Of a stretch of 29,524 nt of DNA, positions 3,108-27,661 are shown in pieces. The notes below the pieces were generated by a model, which was not told the DNA's origin, ran no database searches, and saw only the letters and a program-made list of their open reading frames with translations. Origin of the DNA: a virus. Lineage: Duplodnaviria > Heunggongvirae > Uroviricota > Caudoviricetes. Position numbers and translations under genes: made by a program. The stretch is taken from IMG/VR virus record IMGVR_UViG_2693429557_000011. One strand, given 5' to 3'. Numbering within the stretch: position 1 is the stretch's first letter; each line of letters begins with the position of its first letter.

Positions 3108-3662
3108 TCAGCCAACAAATTTAGCAACAAATACAGCAACCGCCGCTGTGAAAATGGTTGTGCACACTGGCACAATAATGCCACTCCAACGCCACTTCGT
3201 ATTATCATCAACCTTGTCAAACCGCCGATTCATCTCATCCATAATCTTGTCAAAGCGTTTATCCATCGCTTCGGTAAGCTCACCCTTCAGGCTGTTAATG
3301 TCTGATTTGAGCTGCTCTTTCAGGTTAGCTGTATCAGATTTAAGCTCACCTTTCAGATTCGCAATATCGCATTCAAGATCACCTTTCAGATGTGCTATGT
3401 CTGCTTTGAGTTCACCTTTCACCTCACCAACATCGGCTTTAGTTGAGAGGTTTGTAGTGCGTTCAGCAAGCGTCGCAAGGTCGTTTCTTGTTAGCGATAA
3501 ATCACCTTCGAGCCGCTCAATTCGCCTTTCAAGTTTATCTGACATTCCGCCTCCACTACTGCCGCCATCGCCACCATGATAAAGCACATCACGCTCAGAA
3601 TGCGACACACTACCTGCTGAATTACCGAAAAGATTTCTTGCTACATTACCCATTATCACCAT
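3108..3662 (-). CDS. Coiled-coil protein with five tandem 11-residue repeats and a C-terminal transmembrane anchor (XhlA-like architecture, function unknown)
   Basis: 184-aa ORF with a Gly/Ser-rich N-terminus, repeats LKGELKADIAH / LKGDLECDIAN / LKGELKSDTAN / LKEQLKSDINS / LKGELTEAMDK, and a C-terminal hydrophobic segment IIVPVCTTIFTAAVAVFVAKFV; its start overlaps the stop of the upstream gene (translational coupling). The antisense plus-strand ORF is a low-complexity Ser-rich artefact. Confidence 0.6.
   Translation of the reverse strand: MVIMGNVARNLFGNSAGSVSHSERDVLYHGGDGGSSGGGMSDKLERRIERLEGDLSLTRNDLATLAERTTNLSTKADVGEVKGELKADIAHLKGDLECDIANLKGELKSDTANLKEQLKSDINSLKGELTEAMDKRFDKIMDEMNRRFDKVDDNTKWRWSGIIVPVCTTIFTAAVAVFVAKFVG
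3276..3440. repeat. 5 x 33-bp in-frame tandem repeat inside the coiled-coil gene
   Basis: Five consecutive 33-bp units (3276-3308, 3309-3341, 3342-3374, 3375-3407, 3408-3440) sharing the core CACCTTTCAG; they encode the 11-residue protein repeats. Confidence 0.8.
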
Positions 3663-4148: not shown

Positions 4149-5126
4149 TTACATTCCTCCCAAGGGATTAAACCTCACCGCATCCTGCAAGTAATCCGGC
4201 GCAAGATGGGCATAAATCATCGTTGTCTGAATCTTTGCGTGCCCCAGAATTTTCTGGAGCGTCAGAATATTGCCGCCGTTCATCATGAAATGACTGGCGA
4301 AGGTGTGGCGCAGCGCATGAACAGCCTGGCCGTCAGGAACATCAGGTGCGACCGTTTTGATGACATCGCGAACCAATGAATAATCCAGCGTCGGAAACAC
4401 CAGTTTCCCGCCCCGTTTTTTGATCTTTTCAAACAGGCTTTCAGAAATAGGAACGGTACGGTTTTTGCTGTTCTTCGTTTTTGAAAAAGTGATTCGACAA
4501 TGAAGAACACGGCGCTGCTCCAGTGCCGCTACCTCGCCCCATCGCGCCCCGGTCGACAGAAGGATTTCGACGGCCAGCCGTTCATCGGGATTTTCAGCCA
4601 GTGCATCCAGCAACTGAACACATTCAGACTTACTCAGATATCCCATTTCACGCTCGTTAACCTTCATTCCTTTAAGGCCTTGAACGGGGTTATCGTTAAG
4701 AAAATGGCCGGATGAGATGAGTGCGGTAAACATCGCGCTTAACGCCCCAATCTCTCGATTTATGGTGCTGGGCTGTATCCCCTGCTCTATCCTGGACACA
4801 CGTAGCTCGGTGAGCATCGTTGTATTAAGTTTATGCACGCACGGGTCATCCATTGCCTCACTCAAGCGCAGCAATTTAAGGCGCGTGTTATGCCCTGACT
4901 TCATTAGCTGGCCGTGGTATTTCCACCACAAGTCAATAAGCACTGACAGCGGACGGCGATCAATGGAGTTTCCTTTCCACTCATTGTTATGCTGTTGCGC
5001 CAGCACCCACCGCTCATATAAAACTGCATCCGATTTCGTTTTAAATTTTTTGCGAATGCGTTTGCCTTTACGCCCCTCAGGACGCATGTCAAGAAGATAC
5101 CCTCCCGGAATTGATTTTATGCTCAT
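4149..5126 (-). CDS. int: P2-type tyrosine integrase
   Basis: C-terminal catalytic box AVHALRHTFASHF ... LGHAKIQTTMIYAHL (R, H-x-x-R, Y) and overall similarity to P2 Int. Start taken at the internal Met (MSIKSIPGG...), which parallels the P2 Int N-terminus and avoids overlap with the C gene; the longer ORF to 5276 is less likely. Confidence 0.9.
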   Translation of the reverse strand: MSIKSIPGGYLLDMRPEGRKGKRIRKKFKTKSDAVLYERWVLAQQHNNEWKGNSIDRRPLSVLIDLWWKYHGQLMKSGHNTRLKLLRLSEAMDDPCVHKLNTTMLTELRVSRIEQGIQPSTINREIGALSAMFTALISSGHFLNDNPVQGLKGMKVNEREMGYLSKSECVQLLDALAENPDERLAVEILLSTGARWGEVAALEQRRVLHCRITFSKTKNSKNRTVPISESLFEKIKKRGGKLVFPTLDYSLVRDVIKTVAPDVPDGQAVHALRHTFASHFMMNGGNILTLQKILGHAKIQTTMIYAHLAPDYLQDAVRFNPLGGM

Positions 5127-5175
5127 TCGTGAAGCCCCAGCGTTACAAGACCACCATGCCCCCAGCGTTCCATGA

Positions 5176-5487
5176 TTAGCCGGGCTGTGTGCCAGTCTTG
5201 CGGGATTTTTGAGAAGACGATGTGTTTTCTGGCCCATCAGGGGAGAGAGAAGGACTGATCTGCCCAGCAGCCTCATTTGTTTCGTTACTCATCAACCACG
5301 TAGTGTATTTTTTAAATTCCGGGTGCATTGTGATTTTCAGTAAAACCTCCGTTCCCACACCTCGAATACCAGTCTCGTATTGCTTAACCGTACCAACCGC
5401 AATACCTATTGAATCCGCGAACTTTGCCTGACTAAGCCCCTCAGATTCTCGAATTGCTTTTAGCTTCTTTGATATCTCTATTGACAT
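5176..5487 (-). CDS. Immunity repressor, P2 C-like (XRE-type HTH)
   Basis: About 103 aa from the internal Met (MSIEISKKLKAIRESEGLSQAKFADSIGIAVGTVKQYETG), a classic helix-turn-helix; sits directly upstream of int on the same strand and faces the cox-like gene, as C does in P2. Confidence 0.75.
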   Translation of the reverse strand: MSIEISKKLKAIRESEGLSQAKFADSIGIAVGTVKQYETGIRGVGTEVLLKITMHPEFKKYTTWLMSNETNEAAGQISPSLSPDGPENTSSSQKSRKTGTQPG

Positions 5488-5518
5488 GGTGTGCACCTGA
5501 ATACTATATTGGTTATCA
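5481..5518 (+). promoter_or_regulatory. Candidate early rightward promoter (Pe-like): -35 TTGACA (5481-5486), -10 TATATT (5505-5510), with repeat GGTTATCA at the predicted start site
   Basis: Consensus -35 hexamer with 18-bp spacing to a good -10; the -35 overlaps the C start codon, consistent with face-to-face Pe/Pc in P2-like switches. GGTTATCA occurs twice (5511-5518 and 5571-5578). Confidence 0.45.
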
Positions 5519-5582
5519 GTTGAGTACCACTTGACGCTACAAAGAGCCACAAATAGCACCAGATTGAATAGGTTATCACACC

Positions 5583-5861
5583 ATGGCAAAAGTCCTTAAC
5601 ACATACGAACAAGCGGATTTTGAGCGTTTGGCGGCGTTCTACCCATACCGTAATGAACATGGGCTACCGGTACTTGAAGAAAGCCTAGAGGATTATGCGA
5701 AACGCACAAATCAAAGCATTCTCGCTGTAAGAAGGCAGGCTGATAGATCGGTAATTCCCGTTACTCAAGAAGGAAGAAACACAAAACGCAAAGTAAATCT
5801 CTTCGCAATTTTCCTGAAAACCATCAGAAACGCAGAGAAATACGTGCAGATGACAAAATAA
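5583..5861 (+). CDS. Cox-like early regulator (positional assignment; no clear sequence similarity to P2 Cox recognised)
   Basis: 92-aa first gene of the rightward early operon, divergent from the C repressor; ATG preceded by a short purine-rich stretch. Confidence 0.4.
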   Translation: MAKVLNTYEQADFERLAAFYPYRNEHGLPVLEESLEDYAKRTNQSILAVRRQADRSVIPVTQEGRNTKRKVNLFAIFLKTIRNAEKYVQMTK

Positions 5862-5875
5862 CGAGGTGTCATTTT

Positions 5876-6214
5876 ATGCTGAAGCAACGCCGTAATTTTT
5901 GTACCGGAACAGAACGCCACGCTAACCGTTTCACTACCAGTGCATCACGCAGCAACATCCGCTACAGCCTGAGTGATACACACGCAACGCCGGATGGCTA
6001 CCCAGTAAAACAAATCGGCGAGCACGCCTGGCTGATTGAGAAAGCTGGAATCGTGATCCACAAATGCCCACGCAATCCGTTTACCGGAAACCGCATTTTT
6101 GCACTGAGCTGTGGCGACAATCAGTTCGGGCAGGATTTCACATTATACGAAGCACTTCGCACGGTTGATCGTCTGCTTCGCGGGCAAAGTTTTATTAAAC
6201 AGGCTGATTTATAA
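5876..6214 (+). CDS. Hypothetical early protein
   Basis: 112-aa ORF in the early operon; no family recognised. Confidence 0.4.
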   Translation: MLKQRRNFCTGTERHANRFTTSASRSNIRYSLSDTHATPDGYPVKQIGEHAWLIEKAGIVIHKCPRNPFTGNRIFALSCGDNQFGQDFTLYEALRTVDRLLRGQSFIKQADL

Positions 6215-6224
6215 CAGGTGCTTT

Positions 6225-6512
6225 ATGACCAAAGACAATGCACAAGGTGTATTTATCCGTTTTATTGATTTTCGCGGTGAACTGTTATTACGTGCATCCG
6301 CTATTGACGGAGTGACTCCGGCGGGTAAAAACGGAGCCGACGAAGCCACTTACGTTTATCTGAACGGCACGCGACTGCTTGTGGAACTTCCGTACCAGAC
6401 CGTACGAGAAATCATCAGCGAAGATGAAAAGGCACGCCAGGTTAATGGCGATGAACCCTATATCGAAATTATTTGTATGGATTCAGAAGCTGAAATACAG
6501 AAAGCAGATTAA
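6225..6512 (+). CDS. Hypothetical early protein
   Basis: 95 aa from the internal ATG at 6225 (MTKDNAQGVF...); acidic C-terminus; the upstream extension to 6111 overlaps the previous gene and is less plausible. Confidence 0.4.
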   Translation: MTKDNAQGVFIRFIDFRGELLLRASAIDGVTPAGKNGADEATYVYLNGTRLLVELPYQTVREIISEDEKARQVNGDEPYIEIICMDSEAEIQKAD

Positions 6513-6520
6513 AGGGCGTT

Positions 6521-6766
6521 GTGATGGGCAAAGAATATAAAACTCTCATTAACAAAGCACTTGAGCGTTTTTATTTTCGCTTAAGTGCATCAGGCGCTCA
6601 TGCTGAACGTGCGGCCCGTGACTCATTGACCAGAGCAATCCGAAGTCTGTATGACGTGGCTTTTTACGCTGATGATCTGGATGCACTTAACGAACTTTCC
6701 GAGCTGATCTGTGCCGCAGAATGCGGGGAACATATTGAACCGTATAAGCTGGGAAATATCGCATGA
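6521..6766 (+). CDS. Hypothetical early protein
   Basis: 81-aa ORF, GTG/ATG start at 6521/6524; its stop overlaps the start of the next small ORF (ATGA). Confidence 0.4.
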   Translation: MMGKEYKTLINKALERFYFRLSASGAHAERAARDSLTRAIRSLYDVAFYADDLDALNELSELICAAECGEHIEPYKLGNIA

Positions 6767-6876
6767 GTATATTTATTTCATGGCTTGTTCTGATTATTTC
6801 GGTGGTCTGCGCCATTGGGATTATGCGAATTATTAATTCAGTAAAAAAGATTGAACGCTTTTTCACTGAAGAATAA
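6763..6876 (+). CDS. Possible small hydrophobic protein (37 aa, single predicted membrane helix)
   Basis: Translates to MSIFISWLVLIISVVCAIGIMRIINSVKKIERFFTEE; start coupled to the upstream stop; too short for the ORF track, so low confidence. Confidence 0.25.
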   Translation: MSIFISWLVLIISVVCAIGIMRIINSVKKIERFFTEE

Positions 6877-6962
6877 CCGCGCAAATAAGACCCCAGGTTA
6901 AATAAGAAAATGTGAAAACAATCCGCATTCGCGGAGGTATTCGCACACGCCAAGGAGGCGTA

Positions 6963-7166
6963 ATGGCAATTAAGCATTTTCCTGTCGTTCGTTTCACCTC
7001 CAGAGGACGTGAATACGAAGTTGACGAACGCCTGATTACCACAATCGACAAACACCGTTCAGAAAAGGATGCACATCATATCTATCTCACTGACGGCACT
7101 TACTTCTGCGCCACCAACGTGGTGCAGGTGAATCTTATCAGACAGGTACAGGAGTCACGCAGATGA
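6963..7166 (+). CDS. Hypothetical early protein
   Basis: 67 aa from the ATG at 6963, preceded by a strong Shine-Dalgarno AAGGAGG; its stop overlaps the next start. Confidence 0.45.
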   Translation: MAIKHFPVVRFTSRGREYEVDERLITTIDKHRSEKDAHHIYLTDGTYFCATNVVQVNLIRQVQESRR

Positions 7167-7408
7167 CCATTCTGGACTACATCGCTGCCAATCCGGGTTG
7201 TAGCAGTGGAGAAATCGCCGCAGCACTGAATACACCAACCACAACCATTAATGCGGAGCTACGCCGTCTCTGGCGCAGCGGTTTAGTCACAAGAAAAGAG
7301 CGCAAAACAGGCGGTCGCTTTTCTTATCAGGTAAACCTGATGCCGTTTGGGTGTAGCAACCCACTAACCCAGATGTTCAACCAGCTACTGAGGGAAATCA
7401 GAGCATGA
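7163..7408 (+). CDS. Hypothetical small DNA-binding-like protein (possible winged helix)
   Basis: 81-aa ORF; the segment SSGEIAAALNTPTTTINAELRRLWRSGLVTRKE resembles a winged-helix recognition region; start overlaps the previous stop. Confidence 0.4.
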   Translation: MTILDYIAANPGCSSGEIAAALNTPTTTINAELRRLWRSGLVTRKERKTGGRFSYQVNLMPFGCSNPLTQMFNQLLREIRA

Positions 7409-7549
7409 GCACCTCCAACTGCCGGAAACCACGTCGGGCTTCAGCAGCTCATCCGGCAGCAAAACAAACTCCATTAATTCCTGTTCCGGGCCTTTCCTGC
7501 ACCTTGCGGCGGGAGGCCTTCGCACATCTGTAACAAGAGGATTGCCGCA

Positions 7550-7915
7550 ATGATTCTCGCCAACGACTTTCTTGAATACCTGCTCAACACAGAGCGTGAT
7601 CTTGCCGCTCGCGTGCGTGATCGTTATGACATGTACCTGAAATCCCTGCCTGTACCGCAGCTCGCTGACGGAAAGATTGTTATTGATGGTCGCTACATGA
7701 TTGACAGCCACGAGGGAAATTACAGGCTTTACCGCATTGAAGGTGGCACCCCGTCCGTTATTGGCATTTACCAGCGCCCATCCTCTGCAATCGTCGATGT
7801 GATTGCCGACAGCATCCGCATCACACATCGCCATGCCGACACAGAAGACACCGTGCTGGAAATTCAGCGGCTGGCTACAGTCTGCCGCGACACCCTGAAT
7901 GGCATGACGAAGTAA
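7550..7915 (+). CDS. Hypothetical early protein immediately upstream of the replication gene
   Basis: 121-aa ORF ending 7 nt before the A-like gene start. Confidence 0.45.
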   Translation: MILANDFLEYLLNTERDLAARVRDRYDMYLKSLPVPQLADGKIVIDGRYMIDSHEGNYRLYRIEGGTPSVIGIYQRPSSAIVDVIADSIRITHRHADTEDTVLEIQRLATVCRDTLNGMTK

Positions 7916-7921
7916 ATCACT

Positions 7922-10744
7922 ATGACGGCAGAGTACATCAGGGACTGGCAACAACCGCGCCACGCAGTGGGGCGTGAAGGAACGGGGATCCCCGCTCCTG
8001 AATCCGCGCTTTCCTCCTGGCTGGATGCCCACCGGGCAGAGAACGAGCGCCGCCAGGAAATGGCTGATGCGGCGTTCTCCGCCACGCCACTGGGCAACCT
8101 GATTAATAAAAGCCTGGACGCACAGGAAAAACAGGACAAAACCATCACACTGGCAGGAGACGCCAGAAAACAGGCACGCGGCGCGGTGGATGAAGCCATG
8201 GCCTCGCTGCGCCTGCTGCCGTCCTATCTGCGCGATCCGCTTATTCGCCACCTCTCCTTCCTGCGCAAAAAACAGGAAGCCGATCGCCGGAAAGGCAAAA
8301 AGAGCTGGCAGGCGGAACGCTATGCACGCGGAACCCTGCGCAAAATATTCGAACGTCTGGATCGCACTGACGGACACTGGCTGACACCGGGTTATCGCTC
8401 CCTTGCCGGACGTGAACGCCTGGACGATTTGCTTTACCTGCCGCAACTCAACAAACACCAGATACAGACGCTGGCCACCATGACGGCGGCGATGTTCAGC
8501 AGCACCTTCGAAAAACTCTGCGATGGTTTTGGCGCGACTGATGGCGAGCTGACCATGGATGTAACGCTGAAGGCGTATCAGATGCTGGCCCGCATGGCGT
8601 TACACTTACACGCCATGCCTCCGCATTATGACGCACTGACAACAGACAAAGACCGGAGGCACGAACCGGACACAGAACTGCTGCCGGGCGCAATCCTTCG
8701 CCTGACCTGTGCGGAATGGTGGAAACGCAAACTGTGGCTGTTACGTTGCGAGTGGAGAGAAGAACAACTTCGCGCCGCCTGTCTGGTTTCCAGAAAAACA
8801 TCGCCCTATCTGAGCCAGGACGCGTTAAGCGAGTTTCGCGCACAGCGCGAGAAAACACGCGATTTCCTGAAAAGTTTCATGCTGGAAAATGAAGACGGGT
8901 TCACGATTGATCTCGAGACGGTGTATTACGCGGGAGTAAGTAACCCGGTTCACCGTAAGGCAGAAATGATGGCCACCATGAAGGGGCTGGAACTTCTGGC
9001 CGAAGCCCGTGGCGACAAAGCGGTGTTTCTGACTGTCACCTGCCCGTCAAAATACCACGCCACAACGGAGAACGGTCATCCGAATCCCAAATGGAACGGG
9101 GCCACAATGCGCGACTCCAGCGATTACCTGGTTAACACGTTTTTTGCGACGGTCCGCAAAAAACTGAACCGCGACGGCCTGCGCTGGTATGGCATCCGCA
9201 CGGCGGAGCCTCACCATGACGGCACCGTGCACTGGCATATGATGGTCTTTGCTCATCCGGAAGAAATCGACACCATTGTGTCCCACACCCGCGATATTGC
9301 CATTCAGGAAGATCGTCACGAGCTGGGCGATGACATAACTCCGCGCTTTAAGGCGGAGTATGTAGACGGCTCAAAAGGCACGCCAACCAGCTACATCGCC
9401 ACCTACATCGGGAAAAACCTGGACAGCCGCGCCGTGGATGGCATCGACCCGAAAACGGGCAAGCCACGCGTTGACCACGAAACCGGAAAATCAATGGCCG
9501 AGAGCGTGGAACGCGCCATCGGCTGGGCGCGCCTTCACCGGGTCCGCCAGTTCCAGTTCTTTGGCATCCCCTCCCGCCAGGTATGGCGTGAACTGCGCCG
9601 CCTTGCCAGCCAGATGGCACGCAACCCGGAAGGCCCGCAACGGCTGAAGGATGACGCAATGGATGCGGTTCTTGCCGCCGCTGATGCCGGATGTTTTGCC
9701 ACCTACATAGAGAAACAGGGCGGCGTACTTGTTCCACGCAAAGACTACCTGATTCGCACCGCCTACGACCTCGCCGATGAGCTGAACGATTACGGCGAAC
9801 AGAGCGTACAGATTTACGGGATCTGGTCACCACTCATCGGGGAATCCTCCCGTGTGTGCACGCATCCGGATAACTGGAAGCTGGTAAGACGCAAACCGGA
9901 AGCGGAAGACAGCGCCCGCGAAAATGGTTTTGACCTTCAGGGCGGCCCTGCCGCCCCTTGGACTCGTGGCAATAACTGTCCCCGTGTACAGGAAACGGAC
10001 AACAACGGGACAGAACAGCCGGAAGAACGGCCAGCACCGTGGCCGCAGCTCCCTGACGGCGTTGATGTGGATGAATGGATGCGCTCACTGAAACGGCACG
10101 AACGCCGGGCGCTGATGCGTTCGCTTCGTGACAAACAGGCAAAAAACAGCAGTGATGAAATGCAGAGCTGGACACAGAGCCGCAAACAGCAGCGGCCTTT
10201 GCCTGATAACCACGAATTACTCGCTAAAGAATGGCGGGAGTCTGCTGAATCTCTCGGCCTGCATATCGGTGAACAACAGATGCAGCACCTGTTACGGGGC
10301 GGCAGTCTGTACGTTGACGGCAGCATCATTGCACCGCAGGGATTTGAAATTGTACGCAAACCGGATACCCGCCCGGACAGCCGAATCACGCAGCTCTGGC
10401 AGCGCCTGAGCCGTAATCATGGCGTAAGCAGCACGGAGATCCGCCATAACCCGGTCGCCAGCTATCTGACACAGCTGGGGGCATCAGACCCTGAAGCCGC
10501 CGCACGCCTGGCATCCACACTTCAGCAGGACCAGAACACCATGAAAACACCCGTTACCGTGCTTTCTGACATGCTGCGCGCCATCCGCGACGCAGAGCAC
10601 GCACAGAGAATCAGTGAAACCACTGAACGCGCCCGCCGCAAAGCAGACCTGCTGCGGGGTGGCCTGACCAGTGGAAACAAAAAACAGACAGAAACGGGAC
10701 TCACGAATCCCGTAAATGAGCAAAAAACGCGCAGCGATATATGA
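7922..10744 (+). CDS. A: Rolling-circle replication initiator, P2 gpA-like HUH endonuclease, with a long low-complexity C-terminal extension
   Basis: 940-aa ORF with an HUH motif (HWHMMVFAH) and a downstream tyrosine motif (YIATYIGKN), as in P2/186 A proteins; the C-terminal ~300 residues are R/Q/E-rich and make it longer than the ~700-760 aa of classical A proteins. Confidence 0.85.
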   Translation: MTAEYIRDWQQPRHAVGREGTGIPAPESALSSWLDAHRAENERRQEMADAAFSATPLGNLINKSLDAQEKQDKTITLAGDARKQARGAVDEAMASLRLLPSYLRDPLIRHLSFLRKKQEADRRKGKKSWQAERYARGTLRKIFERLDRTDGHWLTPGYRSLAGRERLDDLLYLPQLNKHQIQTLATMTAAMFSSTFEKLCDGFGATDGELTMDVTLKAYQMLARMALHLHAMPPHYDALTTDKDRRHEPDTELLPGAILRLTCAEWWKRKLWLLRCEWREEQLRAACLVSRKTSPYLSQDALSEFRAQREKTRDFLKSFMLENEDGFTIDLETVYYAGVSNPVHRKAEMMATMKGLELLAEARGDKAVFLTVTCPSKYHATTENGHPNPKWNGATMRDSSDYLVNTFFATVRKKLNRDGLRWYGIRTAEPHHDGTVHWHMMVFAHPEEIDTIVSHTRDIAIQEDRHELGDDITPRFKAEYVDGSKGTPTSYIATYIGKNLDSRAVDGIDPKTGKPRVDHETGKSMAESVERAIGWARLHRVRQFQFFGIPSRQVWRELRRLASQMARNPEGPQRLKDDAMDAVLAAADAGCFATYIEKQGGVLVPRKDYLIRTAYDLADELNDYGEQSVQIYGIWSPLIGESSRVCTHPDNWKLVRRKPEAEDSARENGFDLQGGPAAPWTRGNNCPRVQETDNNGTEQPEERPAPWPQLPDGVDVDEWMRSLKRHERRALMRSLRDKQAKNSSDEMQSWTQSRKQQRPLPDNHELLAKEWRESAESLGLHIGEQQMQHLLRGGSLYVDGSIIAPQGFEIVRKPDTRPDSRITQLWQRLSRNHGVSSTEIRHNPVASYLTQLGASDPEAAARLASTLQQDQNTMKTPVTVLSDMLRAIRDAEHAQRISETTERARRKADLLRGGLTSGNKKQTETGLTNPVNEQKTRSDI

Positions 10745-10789
10745 AGCGCGCACAAAACAGGCAAAAACGGGATTTCAGAATCCCGTAAA
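10681..10789. repeat. Two 36-bp direct repeats, each with an internal 5-bp-stem hairpin (CGGGA...TCCCG); candidate parC-like centromere or origin element
   Basis: Copy 1 at 10681-10716 and copy 2 at 10754-10789 (about 80% identical), spanning the end of gene A and the leader of the ParM-like gene. Confidence 0.5.
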
Positions 10790-10820
10790 CGATTAATTAA
10801 TCAACATAAGGAAAAGCGAC

Positions 10821-11780
10821 ATGAAAATTTGTATCGACGACGGCTCCACCAACATCAAGCTGGCATGGACTGAGAACGGCGAACGCCGCAACGCCATCAG
10901 CCCGAACAGCTTCAAGTCGGAATGGTCTGCGCCGTTCGGTGGCATGCAGCCCGCGAACTACATGCTTGATGGCGTGCGCTATGGTTTTGATCCGGTCAGC
11001 GATCGCTTTGTCCAGACAACCGACACGCAATACCAGTACAGCGATGTAAATGTCATTGCCATTCATCACGCGCTGGTCAAATCAGGCATCACGCCACAGG
11101 AGGTGGATGTGGTTGTCACCCTGCCACTGAGCGAGTATTTCGACACAAACGCACAGCCGGACATGGCCAACATCAACCGCAAAAAAGCGAACGTTATGCG
11201 CCCGGTGGAGTACCAGAACGGCGAAGCATTCACTATCCGTAACGTGCGGGTTATGCCTGAATCCATTCCGGCTGGCTTTAAGGCACTGGCTGACATGAGT
11301 CCGTTTGAATCCCTGCTGATTGTGGATTTGGGCGGAACCACGCTGGATGTGGCAAAGGTTCAGGGGCAACTGGCAGGTATCAGCCAGGTGTTTTGCGATC
11401 CACACGTAGGCGTTTCTCTGATGGCCGATGCCGTACTGTCGGTGATGGCCACTAACGGTATGCGCACCAGTCACCACATCGCCAATACCATTATCGAACA
11501 TCGCCATGATGAAGCCTGGCTGCGCCAGCACATCCACAATGACGCGCATTACGCCAGCCTGATGGCGGTTATTCGTGAAAAGGAAGAAACACTGAAACAA
11601 CGCGTGATCCGCGCGCTGGCGGGTTTTTCGGGTTACGGGCGGGTGATGGTTGTCGGTGGAGGGGCGGAGATTGTGGCACCCGCTATCCGCGAAGCCTGCG
11701 GAGTTAATGCGACTTTCATCGCGGACGGGGTGCCACAGTTTGCTCTGGTTAATGGGCTGTACGCAATGGACAAGGAGTAA
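10821..11780 (+). CDS. parM: ParM/StbA-family actin-like segregation ATPase
   Basis: 319-aa ORF with N-terminal IDDGSTNIKL phosphate-1 motif, SPNSFK, YQYSDVNVIAIHHAL, PESIPAGF, LIVDLGGTTLD, VVGGGAE and a C-terminal LVNGLY; size and motif order match plasmid R1 ParM as recalled from memory. Confidence 0.8.
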   Translation: MKICIDDGSTNIKLAWTENGERRNAISPNSFKSEWSAPFGGMQPANYMLDGVRYGFDPVSDRFVQTTDTQYQYSDVNVIAIHHALVKSGITPQEVDVVVTLPLSEYFDTNAQPDMANINRKKANVMRPVEYQNGEAFTIRNVRVMPESIPAGFKALADMSPFESLLIVDLGGTTLDVAKVQGQLAGISQVFCDPHVGVSLMADAVLSVMATNGMRTSHHIANTIIEHRHDEAWLRQHIHNDAHYASLMAVIREKEETLKQRVIRALAGFSGYGRVMVVGGGAEIVAPAIREACGVNATFIADGVPQFALVNGLYAMDKE

Positions 11781-11784
11781 ACCA

Positions 11785-12096
11785 ATGACGACACCAACCA
11801 GACGGATAAGTTTCTATCTGAAGCCTGCGGCCGTCAAGAACGAAAGCGAAGCATGCGCCTGGCTGGGCAGCCTTACACCAGAAGCCCGCAAAAGCGGCCA
11901 ACGCGTGGCTTTTCTGGCCGGGCTGGCACTTCTGAAAATGAATCCAGCAGAGGCTTACCGACTGGCTGCATGGGCTGACGATGAGGCGTTATCGGTGACA
12001 CAAACCAGGACAGAACGCCCCGTGCCACAGCCAGTACCAACCGCACAGATAACCAGTCAGATAGCAGGGAATATCCGGGCATTATTTCCTGAATGA
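11785..12096 (+). CDS. parR: ParR-like centromere-binding adaptor (putative)
   Basis: 103 aa from the ATG 4 nt after the parM stop; RRISFYLKP and AFLAGLALL segments and a C-terminal IRALFP resemble R1 ParR (RRTIAFKLNP / ALTAGLAL / LRSLFP) as recalled. The longer upstream ORF start at 11650 lies inside parM and is rejected. Confidence 0.55.
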   Translation: MTTPTRRISFYLKPAAVKNESEACAWLGSLTPEARKSGQRVAFLAGLALLKMNPAEAYRLAAWADDEALSVTQTRTERPVPQPVPTAQITSQIAGNIRALFPE

Positions 12097-12156
12097 CGAA
12101 TTTGACGGCTTTTAATTTTATCGGGGTGCACTGTCGCCCCGCACGAGGAAAACACG

Positions 12157-12681
12157 ATGAAAAAATACGAATACATGCTAATGAAAGAAGCACTGCGGGC
12201 TGGTCTGGCTCCCTGTCCTGTATCCGTAGAAGCTGTTGTTGGGAACACGATTTTCCGAACGCTGCGAAATCGCGTATCCGTGAAGATGGTTCACCAACCA
12301 CCCAAATCTACCAGCATGATCTATCTGCCGCTGCCCGAGGCTATCAAACTTATGCGTTCGCTGAAATTTGCGATTTGGATGCAGACACAAATCAACAAAG
12401 CGGTGCAAAACACCTTCGTTAAGAGACTAATACCGGAGCTTGCTGCCAGATGTGCAAAATGTACCAGACCCGCACTTCAATTTGATCTGTCATTGATTCA
12501 ACAAGCTACGGAGGCAGAACTGTACCGCCTGTCACCTATCCGTGATGCTCACACGGAAGCATCAGAAATGTTCCGGCTCATGTTTCAATTTAATTTTGCC
12601 GTTCGACGCACACGCGTTCAGGTCAATCGCATGATGCAGGAGCAGGAAGAGTTAACACAGTACAAAGGGGGCAGCCAGTGA
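12157..12681 (+). CDS. Hypothetical protein (174 aa), accessory locus
   Basis: ATG with an upstream GAGG; no family recognised; stop overlaps the GTG start of the next ORF. Confidence 0.5.
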   Translation: MKKYEYMLMKEALRAGLAPCPVSVEAVVGNTIFRTLRNRVSVKMVHQPPKSTSMIYLPLPEAIKLMRSLKFAIWMQTQINKAVQNTFVKRLIPELAARCAKCTRPALQFDLSLIQQATEAELYRLSPIRDAHTEASEMFRLMFQFNFAVRRTRVQVNRMMQEQEELTQYKGGSQ

Positions 12682-12917
12682 GTAATTCAGCACGACTACA
12701 GCTTGGTTTTTCACCGCTATCAAAAACCATCGTATTGGCAAAAATGCGTGACTTAGGAGACGGAACAAAACGCCGCGTAGGAAATGATCGCGGTCGCGAT
12801 GTAACCAACGAGGCCGCTCAACTCGTTTGGCATCTAGTCATGGCAGAAGGCGGTGAAATTAATTGGGAGCTGGATGATGGTTCTCGTATGATTTTGAGGG
12901 CCGAGAAGAGTAAATAG
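12678..12917 (+). CDS. Hypothetical protein (79 aa), translationally coupled to the 174-aa gene
   Basis: GTG start overlapping the upstream TGA (GTGA); acidic C-terminal half; no family recognised. Confidence 0.4.
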   Translation: MSNSARLQLGFSPLSKTIVLAKMRDLGDGTKRRVGNDRGRDVTNEAAQLVWHLVMAEGGEINWELDDGSRMILRAEKSK

Positions 12918-12931
12918 CTCAAGGGGGATTA

Positions 12932-13117
12932 ATGCTAAATGATGATGAAGAAGAGCTGCTTATGCAGGAATGGTCGCTCGGTGATTATGATAATGGTGAA
13001 AATGGGTGCCCGCATTGTGGCCGTTATCGTTTATGTATCTGCCAGAATGGAAAACACAGATGTGAAAAGTGCAATTGGTCTCCGGAACTTAATGACTACG
13101 TGCCGATCGAGTGGTAG
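12932..13117 (+). CDS. Small Cys-rich zinc-binding-like protein (61 aa)
   Basis: Six cysteines in CPHC-x5-CxC-x6-CxxC spacing and an acidic N-terminus; not similar to the Ogr zinc finger as recalled. Confidence 0.45.
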   Translation: MLNDDEEELLMQEWSLGDYDNGENGCPHCGRYRLCICQNGKHRCEKCNWSPELNDYVPIEW

Positions 13118-13608
13118 AGGTAAGTCACACTAGGTGTTTTTTAGTTGATTTTATAAATGCACAATAGTGCACAAATTTGCACAATTTTTTTGAACGACTT
13201 TTTGCCCTTCCGGCCCGCGTGGCGGCTGGATCCGTCAAGGATCCGTGCATGCACAAAAAAACGCGTTTTTTCTGCGCGCAGGTGACGGGGGAACAGCCCG
13301 CGTTTCAGGGGGTAAATAGCATTCCCTGAACGATGTCGCAGAGATACAACAGAATGGCTGTATTTCTCACGCTGAGCGTGAAAAAGACGTGAGGGCTTTT
13401 GATTTGATGGGGTGAAAGGTAAGGCCGTCAAAATCGCACTGAGACGGCGAGAATATGCAGTCAACGAGGTGGGATTGCGTAAGAGTCTGACTGTCGATGA
13501 TGGCAATCAGCAGGAAAGCGTCGTGAAATTATCTGACTGATACAGGAGCTGGAGAGTCGGGGCATAAATTTTTTATGCCCCGGCGAAGCAGCAGACAAGC
13601 GAAGCGCG
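13118..13608. other. Non-coding cos-proximal region downstream of Q (probable packaging/cos region) with phased repeats and a palindrome
   Basis: In P2 the cos site lies just beyond the 3-prime end of Q. Here TGCACAA occurs at 13158, 13168 and 13178 (10-bp phasing), GGATCCGT at 13228 and 13239, and an A7-CGCG-T6 palindrome at 13255-13271. No convincing ORF; the minus-strand ORF 13141-13506 lacks coding character. Confidence 0.4.
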
Positions 13609-14655
13609 TCAGGATGTGGGCTGGGTGTCTAACAGTGCGTAAGGGTTAAAGCGGATCACCTCTTCGCCAAGCCAGTCATTGATGTGCTTCATGGCCTCCA
13701 TGACGGGCATCAGCTCGTTAATTGCGTAAACCCGCGCGGCCTTCTCCACATCACCAAACGCACTTTTTTCGCCCGGCATCGCCCCCATCAGTTGCGGCGG
13801 AACGCGGTGCGCAGCCAGCACATCATCACGGGATGCCGCCTTAACATTCATGAACTCATCCTTTGCGGTGATCTGCTGGAACGGCAAAATTTGCACCCCC
13901 TCTTTGCCCCCGTTGGGCGCATGAATGAGCACGTTTTTAAACGCACCACCACCACGTGCCCCCTGTAGCGTTTCTTTCAGGGAGTCCATGCTTTCGCGGT
14001 TTACCTGCGCTGCACCGATGTAGATGATGCACCCGGCGTGGGATCCGTTGTCGTAGTACAGTTTTCTGAACATGTCCGCCGAATGAGAAAGGCTGGCCGA
14101 GAGTAATGCGCCAAGATATTCCGGCATGCCGTAGATTTCCTGGTTAATATCCGGATTCATCAGGTGGCACACTTTGCCAGGACGAAACTGAAACGCATCC
14201 TTGCCATCCTGCACATACCACCATGATTCAAGATCGCTTCCGCGTCGCATGTATTTCGCCAGGGCGTGCCGTAATTTAAGCGGTTCGCCGAGCATATTGC
14301 TCCGAAGCTCAAGGAATGCGTTACCGAACACAAACCAGTCCAGCGCCAGCGCCGAGAAATCCTGCCGGGAAAGCAGCGGGTGCGGAATATAGCAGCCGAG
14401 CAATACATTGCGCTTAAAGTAAAGCGCAGACTGATGCCAGGACGTTTGCCGGGCAGCTCTTGCCAGACCGTACCAGTCCACCGGGGTTTCATACCACCGC
14501 CCGTTATCAGCACAGTACATATTGTCCAGCAGGTCATGCCCGGTCAGGCGGTAAGGACCATCAAATGTGAATGCACTGAGCGACGATTCTTTCCTGAGCG
14601 CATCAGCGAGATCAATGCGTGAACTCATGCGCACTTTTTTATTTTTTCTGCTCAT
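13609..14655 (-). CDS. Q: Portal protein (P2 gpQ-like)
   Basis: 348-aa ORF, size and position as P2 Q, directly downstream of and overlapping the terminase gene on the same strand. Confidence 0.9.
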   Translation of the reverse strand: MSRKNKKVRMSSRIDLADALRKESSLSAFTFDGPYRLTGHDLLDNMYCADNGRWYETPVDWYGLARAARQTSWHQSALYFKRNVLLGCYIPHPLLSRQDFSALALDWFVFGNAFLELRSNMLGEPLKLRHALAKYMRRGSDLESWWYVQDGKDAFQFRPGKVCHLMNPDINQEIYGMPEYLGALLSASLSHSADMFRKLYYDNGSHAGCIIYIGAAQVNRESMDSLKETLQGARGGGAFKNVLIHAPNGGKEGVQILPFQQITAKDEFMNVKAASRDDVLAAHRVPPQLMGAMPGEKSAFGDVEKAARVYAINELMPVMEAMKHINDWLGEEVIRFNPYALLDTQPTS

Positions 14656-25847: not shown

Positions 25848-25849
25848 NN
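25848..25849. other. Ambiguous bases (NN) at an abrupt P2-like / lambda-like junction
   Basis: Two N characters; the reading frame and the apparent phage family both change across them. Confidence 0.9.
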
Positions 25850-27029: not shown

Positions 27030-27661
27030 ATGCGTAAAGTTTGTGCAGCCATTTTGTCCGCAGCCATTTGCCTGGCCGTATCCGGTGCGCCTGCATGGGC
27101 GTCTGAACATCAGTCCACACTGAGCGCGGGGTATCTTCATGCCCGTACGAACGCTCCCGGCAGCGATAATCTGAACGGGATTAACGTGAAATACCGTTAT
27201 GAGTTTACGGACGCGCTGGGGCTGNNNNNNNNNNNNNNNNNNNNNNNNNNNNNNNNNNNNNNNNNNNNNNNNNNNNNNNNNNNNNNNNNNNNNNNNNNNN
27301 NNNNTACAGCGATACCCGCTGGCATGAAGATTCCGTGCGTAACCGCTGGTTCAGCGTGATGGCGGGGCCGTCTGTACGCGTGAATGAATGGTTCAGCGCG
27401 TATGCGATGGTGGGTGTGGCTTACAGCCGTGTGTCGACTTTCTCCGGGGATTATCTCCGCGTAACTGACAACAAGGGGAAAACGCACGATGTGCTGACCG
27501 GAAGTGATGACGGTCGCCACAGCAACACGTCTCTGGCGTGGGGGGCTGGCGTGCAGTTTAACCCGACCGAATCCGTGACCATTGACCTTGCTTATGAAGG
27601 TTCCGGTAGTGGTGACTGGCGAACGGATGCATTTATTGTTGGTATCGGATACCGTATCTGA
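27030..27661 (+). CDS. lom: Lom-family outer-membrane beta-barrel protein (Ail/Lom/OmpX/PagC family), interrupted by an 80-N gap
   Basis: Signal peptide MRKVCAAILSAAICLAVSGAPAWA, GINVKYRYEFTD, VMAGPSVRVNEWFSAYAMVGVAYSR, and the C-terminal AYEGSGSGDWRTDAFIVGIGYRI, nearly identical to the lambda Lom C-terminus as recalled; the two halves are out of frame because of the gap. Confidence 0.8.
27225..27304. other. Run of 80 N (assembly gap or masked segment) inside lom
   Basis: Literal n characters; flanking reading frames are offset, so the true length is unknown. Confidence 0.95.

Follow-up and report, generated by a model that had tools for sequence, protein, structure and literature searches.

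Two 42-nt direct repeats at the junction of gpA and parM in a P2-like prophage of E. coli most probably (we put the chance at roughly 0.65) make up a parC-like centromere, one arm each, for a type II (ParM/ParR) DNA-segregation cassette, and they may also serve as its operator. This reading is supported by co-inheritance of the repeats with parMR, by their absence where parMR is absent, and by a conserved two-box layout. The window, meaning the whole 29,524-nt stretch of DNA that was analysed, is a P88-like (Xuanwuvirus) prophage of E. coli and is P2-like; its gene order at this point is gpA, parM, parR. The prophage region is carried by 1372 of 5426 complete E. coli genomes (about a quarter), including O104:H4 and O157:H7 strains.

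Features of the region, by position in the window:

10678..10719, no strand: repeat arm 1, the A-rich tract AAAAACAGACAGAAAC plus dyad box 1, overlapping the last gpA codons (repeat family D2, 42 nt, 81%)
10682..10744, plus strand: last 20 codons of gpA and the stop codon, reading through arm 1
10696..10711, no strand: dyad box 1, GGGACTCACGAATCCC (GGGATTCACAAATCCC in most relatives), a putative ParR-binding core (pattern match and 73 variants)
10720..10750, no strand: inter-arm core of 31 bp with a small GC palindrome, CGCGC...GCGCG (per-site variation)
10751..10792, no strand: repeat arm 2, the A-rich tract AAAACAGGCAAAAAC plus dyad box 2, within the parM leader
10769..10784, no strand: dyad box 2, GGGATTTCAGAATCCC, a putative ParR-binding core 73 bp from box 1
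10809..10816, plus strand: parM Shine-Dalgarno region, AAGGAAAA, read from the sequence and almost invariant in 73 variants
10821..11780, plus strand: parM, actin-like segregation ATPase, 319 aa (Pfam StbA_N, E=2.7e-82; ParM C-terminal domain, E=1.3e-68)
11785..12096, plus strand: parR, adaptor/DNA-binding protein, 103 aa (Pfam PF10784 Plasmid_stab_B, E=2e-23)

Anatomy of the repeat pair

A sequence-only reading had described two 36-bp direct repeats, each holding an inverted repeat CGGGA...TCCCG and the first lying within the last codons of the replication gene. All three observations were borne out, and the pair proved to extend to 42 nt: a repeat search placed the copies at 10678-10719 and 10751-10792, with 34 of 42 positions identical and starts 73 bp apart. 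The best 42-mer direct pair within 20-200 nt was recorded for each of 200 first-order Markov resamples (25.8 kb); these pairs averaged 25.8 matches and none had more than 30, versus the 34 observed. Copy 1 occupies codons 921-932 of the 940-codon gpA ORF (7922-10744, TGA stop at 10742-10744), and copy 2 ends 29 nt short of the parM ATG.

The inverted repeat inside each copy reads ACGGGA(C/T)...ATCCCGT, with stems of 6-8 pairs and RNA folding energies of -8.7 to -10.7 kcal/mol, and it includes a 16-bp dyad, GGGAY-N6-ATCCC (in its broader form, GGG-N10-CCC). Exact matches to CGGGA-N8-TCCCG occur at two sites only in the 29.5-kb window, both of them in the repeats. The palindromes of the two copies are also able to pair with each other. 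No short tandem iterons were found within the arms, each of which is a single unit of A-tract and dyad. The inter-arm core is the most variable stretch yet is fixed in length, the only indels being rare homopolymer length changes. A-tracts across 10670-10800 are phased at 10.5 bp (equal power in 0.65% of shuffles), and the box spacing of 73 bp corresponds to about seven helical turns, which would place the dyads on the same face of the DNA. The tract AAACAGRCARAAAC is over-represented in the window, with 10 matches against 0.9 expected, mostly on the plus strand inside gpA, and we judged this excess to be an effect of coding composition.

A promoter scan detected no sigma-70 promoter in 10400-11000, hence none between or beside the repeats, and the nearest strong promoter-like site upstream lies at 5481-5510. 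A conserved ATTAAT motif is present 19-23 nt before the parM ATG and is poor as a -10 element. Because this interval is devoid of a detectable sigma-70 promoter and the core between the arms is so variable, an operator role is unsupported.

The repeats are inherited with parM and parR

The DNA upstream of parM was compared among relatives of the prophage. In two E. coli prophages (L097 and L098), the gpA C-terminal region is 93-95% identical to that of the window, but the cargo is different, parMR is missing and the repeats are absent; homology to the window stops at about 10632-10650. In another relative (L045), homology to the window comprises 10680-12097, opening with repeat 1 and closing at the parR stop codon, and here, as in L099, the gpA end is replaced by a separate 155-aa ORF. 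Among the relatives compared, leaving aside two with a different layout, every parMR locus has the boxes and no locus without parMR does, while the neighbouring genes differ. As judged from these alignments, the repeats travel with parMR as one block and not with gpA.

The arrangement of the boxes is preserved as well. Exactly two GGG-N10-CCC boxes lie in the 300 bp upstream of parM in the window, in L084, in two Hafnia loci (L094 and L102) and in a Plesiomonas locus (L104). Measured from the parM ATG, they lie at -125/-52 in the window and in L084, -124/-51 in Hafnia L094, -128/-55 in Hafnia L102 and -131/-59 in Plesiomonas L104, so that the spacing is 73 bp in the first four and 72 bp in the last. 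ParM is 62% identical to that of the window in Hafnia L102 and 63% in Plesiomonas L104, the lineages compared spanning about 62-90%. The two relatives with the different layout, from Serratia and Enterobacter (L105 and L106), have one long inverted repeat upstream instead of two boxes. The contigs of two intermediate ParR lineages (P0029 and P0031) end inside parM, which places them outside the comparison of upstream DNA. Scans for additional relatives yielded only ParM loci that are 99-100% identical in IMG/VR, and three near-identical loci in GTDB genomes.

All 73 distinct variants of the P88 family have unchanged central GG/CC pairs; a point against the centromere reading is that the repeats as such are about as variable in this family as the gpA 3' end. 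None of the 73 variants contains a two-sided (compensatory) change in a stem pair. In Hafnia L102 and Plesiomonas L104, the interior of the boxes is not self-complementary, plus-strand folding energies are only -3.3 to -4.9 kcal/mol, and the minus-strand T-run is missing. What is conserved thus looks like sequence and not structure, and the dyad resembles a protein site.

That arm 1 overlaps gpA is probably incidental and seems to follow from the cassette lying flush against the gpA stop codon; over its last 20 codons, gpA is probably reading on into cassette DNA. In L084, gpA ends at a TAA in place of the CAG found at 10685-10687 of the window, and in Hafnia L094 it ends in another frame inside the box-1 loop; box 1 is kept in both.

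The gene products fit the assignment of the cassette. ParM of the window matched the R1 ParM structure 1MWK (E=8.5e-93). ParR had no sequence match in the PDB, and its AlphaFold2 monomer model was poor (pLDDT 55). The ParR N-terminal segment, R(R/K)(I/V)SFYL(K/N)P, is kept in all lineages compared, in keeping with a DNA target that is conserved too; across variants that are 42-93% identical, RRISFYLKP (residues 6-14) and the C-terminal tail (NI...FP) do not vary. ParR variants 54-93% identical accompany ParM proteins that are at least 98% identical, with the differences confined to a linker whose hypervariability could stem from diversifying selection. Co-variation of ParR with the repeats was uninformative, since these ParR variants differ in the linker only.

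The repeats thus lie immediately upstream of parM-parR, consist of two 42-nt repeated units, and are inherited together with the two genes as the block 10680-12097. The sequence-only reading had offered ParR-binding centromere iterons flanking the parM promoter as one explanation. The centromere part of it is supported by inheritance with parM-parR and by a two-box layout kept upstream of diverged parM genes; the short tandem iterons of the R1 type and the promoter between the repeats were not found. A comparison of prophages with and without parMR, which that reading had proposed, came out in favour of the centromere, as L097 and L098 have a homologous gpA and other cargo and are without the repeats.

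Alternative explanations for the repeats

Both copies in the window take the form of a GC-rich stem-loop followed by a T-run, and they may be read as a pair of Rho-independent terminators on the minus strand that would keep antisense transcription out of gpA and the parM leader (e.g., read-through of the late P-Q operon across cos, or an antisense RNA). On that strand, both pass a terminator scan and rank 1 and 2 of 20 matches in 5000-14000, with stems of 8 pairs at about -10 kcal/mol followed by the T-runs TTTTTGCCTGTTTT and TTCTGTCTGTTTTTT, and P2 cargo genes downstream of A that are transcribed towards A provide a precedent for convergent transcription at this junction. However, there is no minus-strand gene or promoter-like site from the hairpins to the portal gene, and L098, which has other plus-strand cargo, has no such hairpins. 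L102 and L104 retain the boxes but not the stable stems or the T-runs. Among the 73 P88-family variants, hairpin 2 has its closing pair changed to G-T on the plus strand (A-C on the minus strand) in 23, and a G-C pair is changed in the same manner in 15; the lack of compensatory stem changes also counts against a terminator. The hairpins therefore do not end a minus-strand unit, nor are stem and T-run conserved in relatives, and we regard termination as a rather unlikely explanation, although a secondary, lineage-specific terminator role could exist beside the predicted ParR binding. Folding on the plus strand gives an improbable alternative, in which parM translation or the stability of the mRNA is controlled by the two stem-loops, alone or paired with each other, together with a 26-codon ORF at 10716-10796. 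On that strand, no shuffle folds as well as the 161-nt region (z = -3.6). The stop codon of the ORF is 25 nt ahead of the parM ATG, and its 26 codons are open in Hafnia L094 and in 67 of the 73 P88-family variants. The stems, in contrast, are not conserved in L102 and L104 and show no covariation, and Rfam gave no credible match for the repeat region. The ORF has no Shine-Dalgarno sequence before its ATG, is absent in L104, and is replaced in L102 by a different 167-aa ORF that contains the boxes; by a hand tally, its variable sites fall at codon positions 1/2/3 in numbers of 9/14/13, so that neither a third-position excess nor conservation in distant relatives marks it as protein-coding. Relative to the repeat unit, this ORF (in copy 2) and gpA (in copy 1) share one register, giving a repeat at the peptide level (KQTETGLTNPVNE from gpA and KQAKTGFQNPVND from the small ORF). 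We rejected that repeat as the reason for conservation because gpA of L084 stops before box 1, Hafnia uses another frame, there is no bias at codon position 3, and the ORF is absent in L104.

A conserved dyad is typical of protein sites in general, and the comparative data do not give the identity of the protein. The boxes might bind a host factor or a phage regulator instead of ParR and regulate the cassette with no centromere being involved. For the ParR proteins studied to date, the binding sites are direct iterons (PMC2241845), which favours this reading. Against it, the shared block holds parM and parR only, the boxes track the presence or absence of parMR while neighbouring genes differ, and the exact dyad pattern recurs nowhere else in the window, which together make another binding protein an unlikely candidate. 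The second explanation of the sequence-only reading, that the repeats belong to the replication origin and so to a site that gpA would recognise or nick, drew on the location of P2-type origins inside the 3' part of gene A, and copy 1 is indeed inside gpA. We rejected it as extremely improbable. The annotated P2 nick region is GCGCCTCG^GAGTCCTGTCAATAACTGT, at 29892, and the counterpart of this region and of the 186 origin (itself inferred by similarity) is found at 9932-9980 (GGCGGCCCTGCCGCCCCTTGGACTCGTGGCAATAACTGT), about 700 bp upstream of the repeats and with an equivalent upstream GC hairpin. The repeats neither resemble the P2/186 nick region nor are inherited with gpA: they are absent from the prophages with a 93-95% identical gpA end, the very observation that the sequence-only reading had named as evidence against an origin, and in L045 they follow a different gene. 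The P2-type origin is at 9932-9980 and not in the repeats, which corrects a likely annotation trap.

Proposed function and significance

With the repeats taken as a centromere, we propose that each arm, an A-rich tract followed by the 16-bp dyad, would be a docking site for ParR. ParR belongs to the R1 StbB/ParR family; its dimers would occupy the GGG/CCC half-sites, probably together with the A-rich DNA next to them, and the two loaded arms would form a bent nucleoprotein complex. The conserved C-terminal tail of ParR may then capture the ends of ParM filaments, which would push apart copies of the excised or replicating phage genome; partition activity of the predicted cassette is what these steps would amount to. 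The same complex would regulate parMR if transcription starts in or crosses the region. As a counterpoint, two dyads provide only four obvious half-sites, a number that may not suffice for a ParR scaffold if the A-rich DNA is left unbound.

More broadly, and as a tentative proposal that we hold to be possible rather than probable, the cargo slot that separates gpA from cos in P2-like integrating prophages of the Enterobacterales may house a functional segregation machine of the actin type with a minimal two-dyad centromere (GGG-N10-CCC twice, 72-73 bp apart) that segregates or positions excised or replicating phage circles. The hosts of prophage parMR would then include E. coli, E. albertii, Salmonella, Hafnia, Plesiomonas, Serratia and Enterobacter. 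If this is true, a supposedly strictly integrative phage persists as a plasmid-like episode and does so with a site unlike plasmid iteron arrays. A 34.5-kb circular 'plasmid' record of the phage exists. The ParM and ParR genes of the prophage are routinely annotated, and the cis site adds an uncharacterised example to a known kind of element; our literature search found no report of the cis site or of a partition-system role in an integrating P2-like phage, and none on par in P88-like or CP-933T-like phages. The two dyad boxes, 73 bp apart, offer a concrete target for binding, stability and imaging work that bears on the episomal phase of such phages and on how few ParR sites a ParM machine needs.

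Comparison with known partition systems

A search of PLSDB plasmids with the 156-bp upstream region as query returned only records holding the same prophage sequence (gpA-parM, 94-99% identical). Partition loci of IncF, IncL/M and IncK plasmids and of the plasmid-prophage D6 encode ParM proteins 47-52% identical to that of the window in the same gene order, and their ParR proteins have the N-terminal motif xSFYxxP in common with it. In the IncL/M example, the repeats are also 72-73 bp apart. The parC sites of these plasmids differ, however, being AT-rich intergenic regions of 200-300 bp with many T-rich iterons of 10-11 bp or TCTCA pentamers, and no GGG-N10-CCC boxes were found in the parC regions of IncF, IncL/M, IncK or D6. 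Among prophages, AlpAC/alpS of the Corynebacterium prophage CGP3 is similar in that the prophage encodes an actin-like protein along with an adaptor that binds DNA, and has cognate sites for it (PMC4446434, PMC5539076), whereas, going by the portions of the published descriptions available to us, its proteins, host and site sequences appear unrelated.

The centromere of plasmid R1 is also located directly upstream of its parM-type gene, as is that of the SXT/R391 elements (PMC2241845, PMC4489591). The site in the window resembles R1 parC in lying directly upstream of parM-parR, with a ParR of the StbB/ParR Pfam family, and in having two arms and a short core (about 42+31+42 bp here, 55+39+55 bp in R1). 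R1 parC is described as strongly curved (PMC2241845), and the phasing of A-tracts suggests curvature here as well. It differs in that R1 has ten 11-bp direct iterons, in two sets of five in tandem, with the promoter in the core, whereas each arm here is one long unit with a 16-bp dyad in place of tandem iterons; R1 is also a plasmid, whereas the host replicon here is an integrating P2-like prophage. The srpMRC system of the SXT/R391 ICEs differs in that SrpR has no recognisable similarity to ParR, its repeats are 13 bp long and of unrelated sequence, and the element is an ICE and not a phage. Its centromere, upstream of the ParM-like gene, has no more than four short repeats, some direct and some inverted (PMC4489591), and, like the cassette proposed here, srpMRC is an actin-type partition cassette on a normally integrated element, where it acts on the transient extrachromosomal form (PMC4489591).

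The repeat pair and its setting

The window represents a P88-like prophage (genus Xuanwuvirus, family Peduoviridae), and its 10300-11100 region shows 97-99% identity to 14 phage records and is present in 1372 of 5426 complete E. coli genomes. Downstream of parR come small cargo ORFs and then, on the minus strand, the genes for portal and terminase; in the tail-fibre region, runs of N at 25848-25849 (2 bases) and 27225-27304 (80 bases) are masked or unresolved.

7922-10744, gpA (Phage_GPA, E=6.6e-131)
10678-10719, repeat 1, with dyad box 1 at 10696-10711
10751-10792, repeat 2, with dyad box 2 at 10769-10784
10821-11780, parM (StbA_N, E=2.7e-82; R1 ParM structure 1MWK, E=8.5e-93)
11785-12096, parR (PF10784 Plasmid_stab_B, E=2e-23)

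The two direct repeats quoted in the sequence-only reading were found where it had placed them, and a repeat finder lengthened them to 42 nt, with 34/42 positions identical and starts 73 bp apart. The best 42-mer direct pair within 200 nt had a mean of 25.8 matches and at most 30 in 200 first-order Markov resamples based on 25.8 kb of the window. The internal hairpins it described are present in both copies (ACGGGA(C/T)...ATCCCGT), with stems of 6-8 pairs and folding energies of -8.7 to -10.7 kcal/mol, and these are the only exact CGGGA-N8-TCCCG matches in the window. Copy 1 does lie in the final gpA codons, at codons 921-932 of the 940-codon ORF. Both copies are palindromic and so able to pair with one another; the predicted minimum-energy fold of either strand makes use of this long-range pairing. 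An Rfam search of the repeat region gave no credible match. A-tracts over 10670-10800 are phased at 10.5 bp, with equal power in only 0.65% of shuffles. A 33-nt periodic direct repeat at 3280-3420, inside the minus-strand ORF 3108-3662, equals the gpA/parM pair at 34/42 matches; its likely product is a coiled-coil-like protein with 11-residue repeats.

Linkage to parMR and probable location of the origin

The repeats had been proposed either as ParR sites flanking the parM promoter or as part of a replication origin. In the E. coli prophages L097 and L098, which carry different cargo, the gpA C-terminal region is 93-95% identical to that of the window, but the repeats are missing: homology ends at ~10632-10650, and neither hairpin nor box was found beyond it. 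By the criteria that the sequence-only reading itself set, this speaks against an origin and in favour of a function linked to parMR. In L045 (IMG/VR) and L099 (E. coli), the last ~590 bp of gpA are replaced, gpA stops earlier and is followed by a separate 155-aa ORF, and homology to the window restarts at 10680, the first base of repeat 1, and stops at 12097, at the parR stop codon. L084 (90.6% identical overall) has a gpA stop, TAA, at the position of the window's CAG (10685-10687), and gpA of Hafnia L094 ends in another frame, within the box-1 loop. Since both keep box 1 despite these other gpA ends, the overlap of repeat 1 with the gpA reading frame is probably incidental. On these sequence comparisons, we regard it as settled that the repeats belong to parMR rather than gpA. 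The last ~190 residues of the 940-aa gpA (window ~10158-10744) match by position a separate 155-167-aa ORF in some relatives (L045, 2457-2924; L099, 2598-3065; L102, 2953-3456), which suggests gene fusion or fission, or module replacement, at the gpA 3' end.

The origin reading is also contradicted by a homolog of the P2 nick site elsewhere in gpA. In the P2 record the nick site is at 29892, within GCGCCTCG^GAGTCCTGTCAATAACTGT, and the origin in the 186 record is annotated by similarity to P2. The window counterpart, 9932-9980 (GGCGGCCCTGCCGCCCCTTGGACTCGTGGCAATAACTGT), lies about 700 bp upstream of the repeats and shares the upstream GC hairpin and CAATAACTGT with the P2/186 region, the hairpin being GGCGGC-CCT-GCCGCC, followed by CCTTGGACTCGTGGCAATAACTGT. 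The true origin of the phage probably lies here. An inverted repeat, CTGTCCCCGTGT / ACAACGGGACAG, is found immediately downstream of the origin motif at 9976-10013; the 79% similarity of 9988-10011 to the A-tract plus ACGGGAC of repeat 1 is probably due to chance or composition.

Conserved boxes upstream of parM

The closest plasmid ParM proteins are only about 52% identical, and the plasmid parM genes are preceded by long, AT-rich arrays of iterons that do not resemble the repeats. ParM proteins of intermediate relatedness came from a protein search: 62% identity in Hafnia, 63% in Plesiomonas, 58% in Serratia and 54% in Enterobacter. Each is encoded in a P2-like prophage, in the interval from gpA to the portal gene. 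When GGG-N10-CCC was surveyed within 300 bp upstream of parM, exactly two boxes were found in each of five lineages.

Positions of the GGG-N10-CCC boxes upstream of parM
Lineage, box 1, box 2, spacing
Window, -125, -52, 73 bp
L084, -125, -52, 73 bp
Hafnia L094, -124, -51, 73 bp
Hafnia L102, -128, -55, 73 bp
Plesiomonas L104, -131, -59, 72 bp

In L102 and L104, the box interiors are not self-complementary, the plus-strand boxes reach only -3.3 to -4.9 kcal/mol (3-4 GC pairs, 10-nt loops), the minus-strand T-run is absent, and the boxes lie in different coding contexts. Serratia and Enterobacter have instead a single long inverted repeat (arms 14-20 nt, gap 26-28 nt), and in Enterobacter L106 the half-sites are GGGAAC near -117 and GTTCCC near -57. 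The ParR N-terminal segment R(R/K)(I/V)SFYL(K/N)P is kept in all compared lineages. An ATTAAT(C/A)AA motif 19-23 nt upstream of the parM ATG (window 10792-10804) is common to four lineages, the others being L094, L102 and L104, despite diverged flanks; it is a poor sigma-70 -10 element.

Within the P88 family, 92 loci yielded 73 distinct sequences, in which the central GG/CC pairs of both boxes are invariant. The outer stem positions and loops vary, all departures are one-sided, and no compensatory stem change was found among the 73 variants; variation is highest in the spacer separating the arms, but its length is constant. ParR is much more variable than ParM at the same loci (54-93% versus at least 98% identity; proteins P0001-P0084). 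All of its divergence falls in the linker (central and C-proximal), with no change in residues 6-14 or in the NI...FP tail at the C-terminus. Diversifying selection or recombination may account for this variability. The conserved entity is a pair of dyad-symmetric boxes with fixed spacing, always linked to parM-parR; such a pattern marks a site bound by protein rather than a hairpin in RNA or DNA.

Transcription and alternative roles

A promoter scan near the repeats detected none; transcription of parMR may therefore come by read-through from the early operon. No plus-strand terminator-like site was found between the gpA stop and parM, so that gpA and parMR may share a transcript. The strongest sigma-70 promoter-like site between 5000 and 14000 lies at 5481-5510 (TTGACA-18-TATATT, 11/12) and probably serves as the early promoter. 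Read on the minus strand, both copies have the form of a hairpin with a T-run after it, and they take the top two places among terminator-like sites in 5000-14000. Minus-strand termination is thus a good fit to the window sequence and may be a secondary function of the repeats in the E. coli lineage. Against it, no transcription unit is there to be terminated, and the hairpin/T-run feature is not conserved alongside the boxes.

A plus-strand RNA element or leader peptide seems doubtful. A 26-codon ORF (10716-10796, MSKKRAAIYEARTKQAKTGFQNPVND) spans the core and box 2, and its register over copy 2 equals that of gpA over copy 1 (KQTETGLTNPVNE). Its frame is open in 67/73 P88-family variants and in Hafnia L094, and the ORF is absent from L102 and L104. 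No Shine-Dalgarno precedes it, and a hand tally of variable sites at codon positions 1/2/3 (9/14/13) gave no third-position bias and no sign of selection on the peptide. It is possible that the boxes are bound by a protein other than ParR.

A candidate centromere

ParR would be the most economical candidate to bind the boxes, which would make the region a parC-like centromere. Most likely, the repeats are an as yet uncharacterised centromere belonging to a system of known type, with ParR binding and partition as presumed activities; the region might also be supposed to act as an operator. A 34,461-bp circular record labelled E. coli plasmid (NZ_CP148288.1) carries the gpA-repeats-parM-parR region at 98.7% identity and probably represents the complete genome of a P88-like phage, assembled as a circle outside the chromosome. 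This record hints at episomal persistence or segregation via the cassette, and the finding would matter more if such very common prophages do behave in this way. A 98% identical ParM locus is found on a 226-kb contig labelled with a Gram-positive genus (NZ_JBQPOM010000071.1, 'Vagococcus sp. WN89Y'), likely through contamination or mislabelling.

The parC of plasmid R1 has a 39-bp core containing the promoter, with a block of five 11-bp iterons on either side; each iteron takes up roughly one ParR dimer, and the curved DNA adopts a U-shaped fold (PMC2241845). The window has two ~42-bp arms either side of a 31-bp core. Both the host replicon and the two-dyad layout of the candidate centromere are unusual. 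SXT/R391 elements, which are integrated and have an actin-type partition system, provide a precedent; four short repeats, direct and inverted, are all that their centromere contains (PMC4489591).
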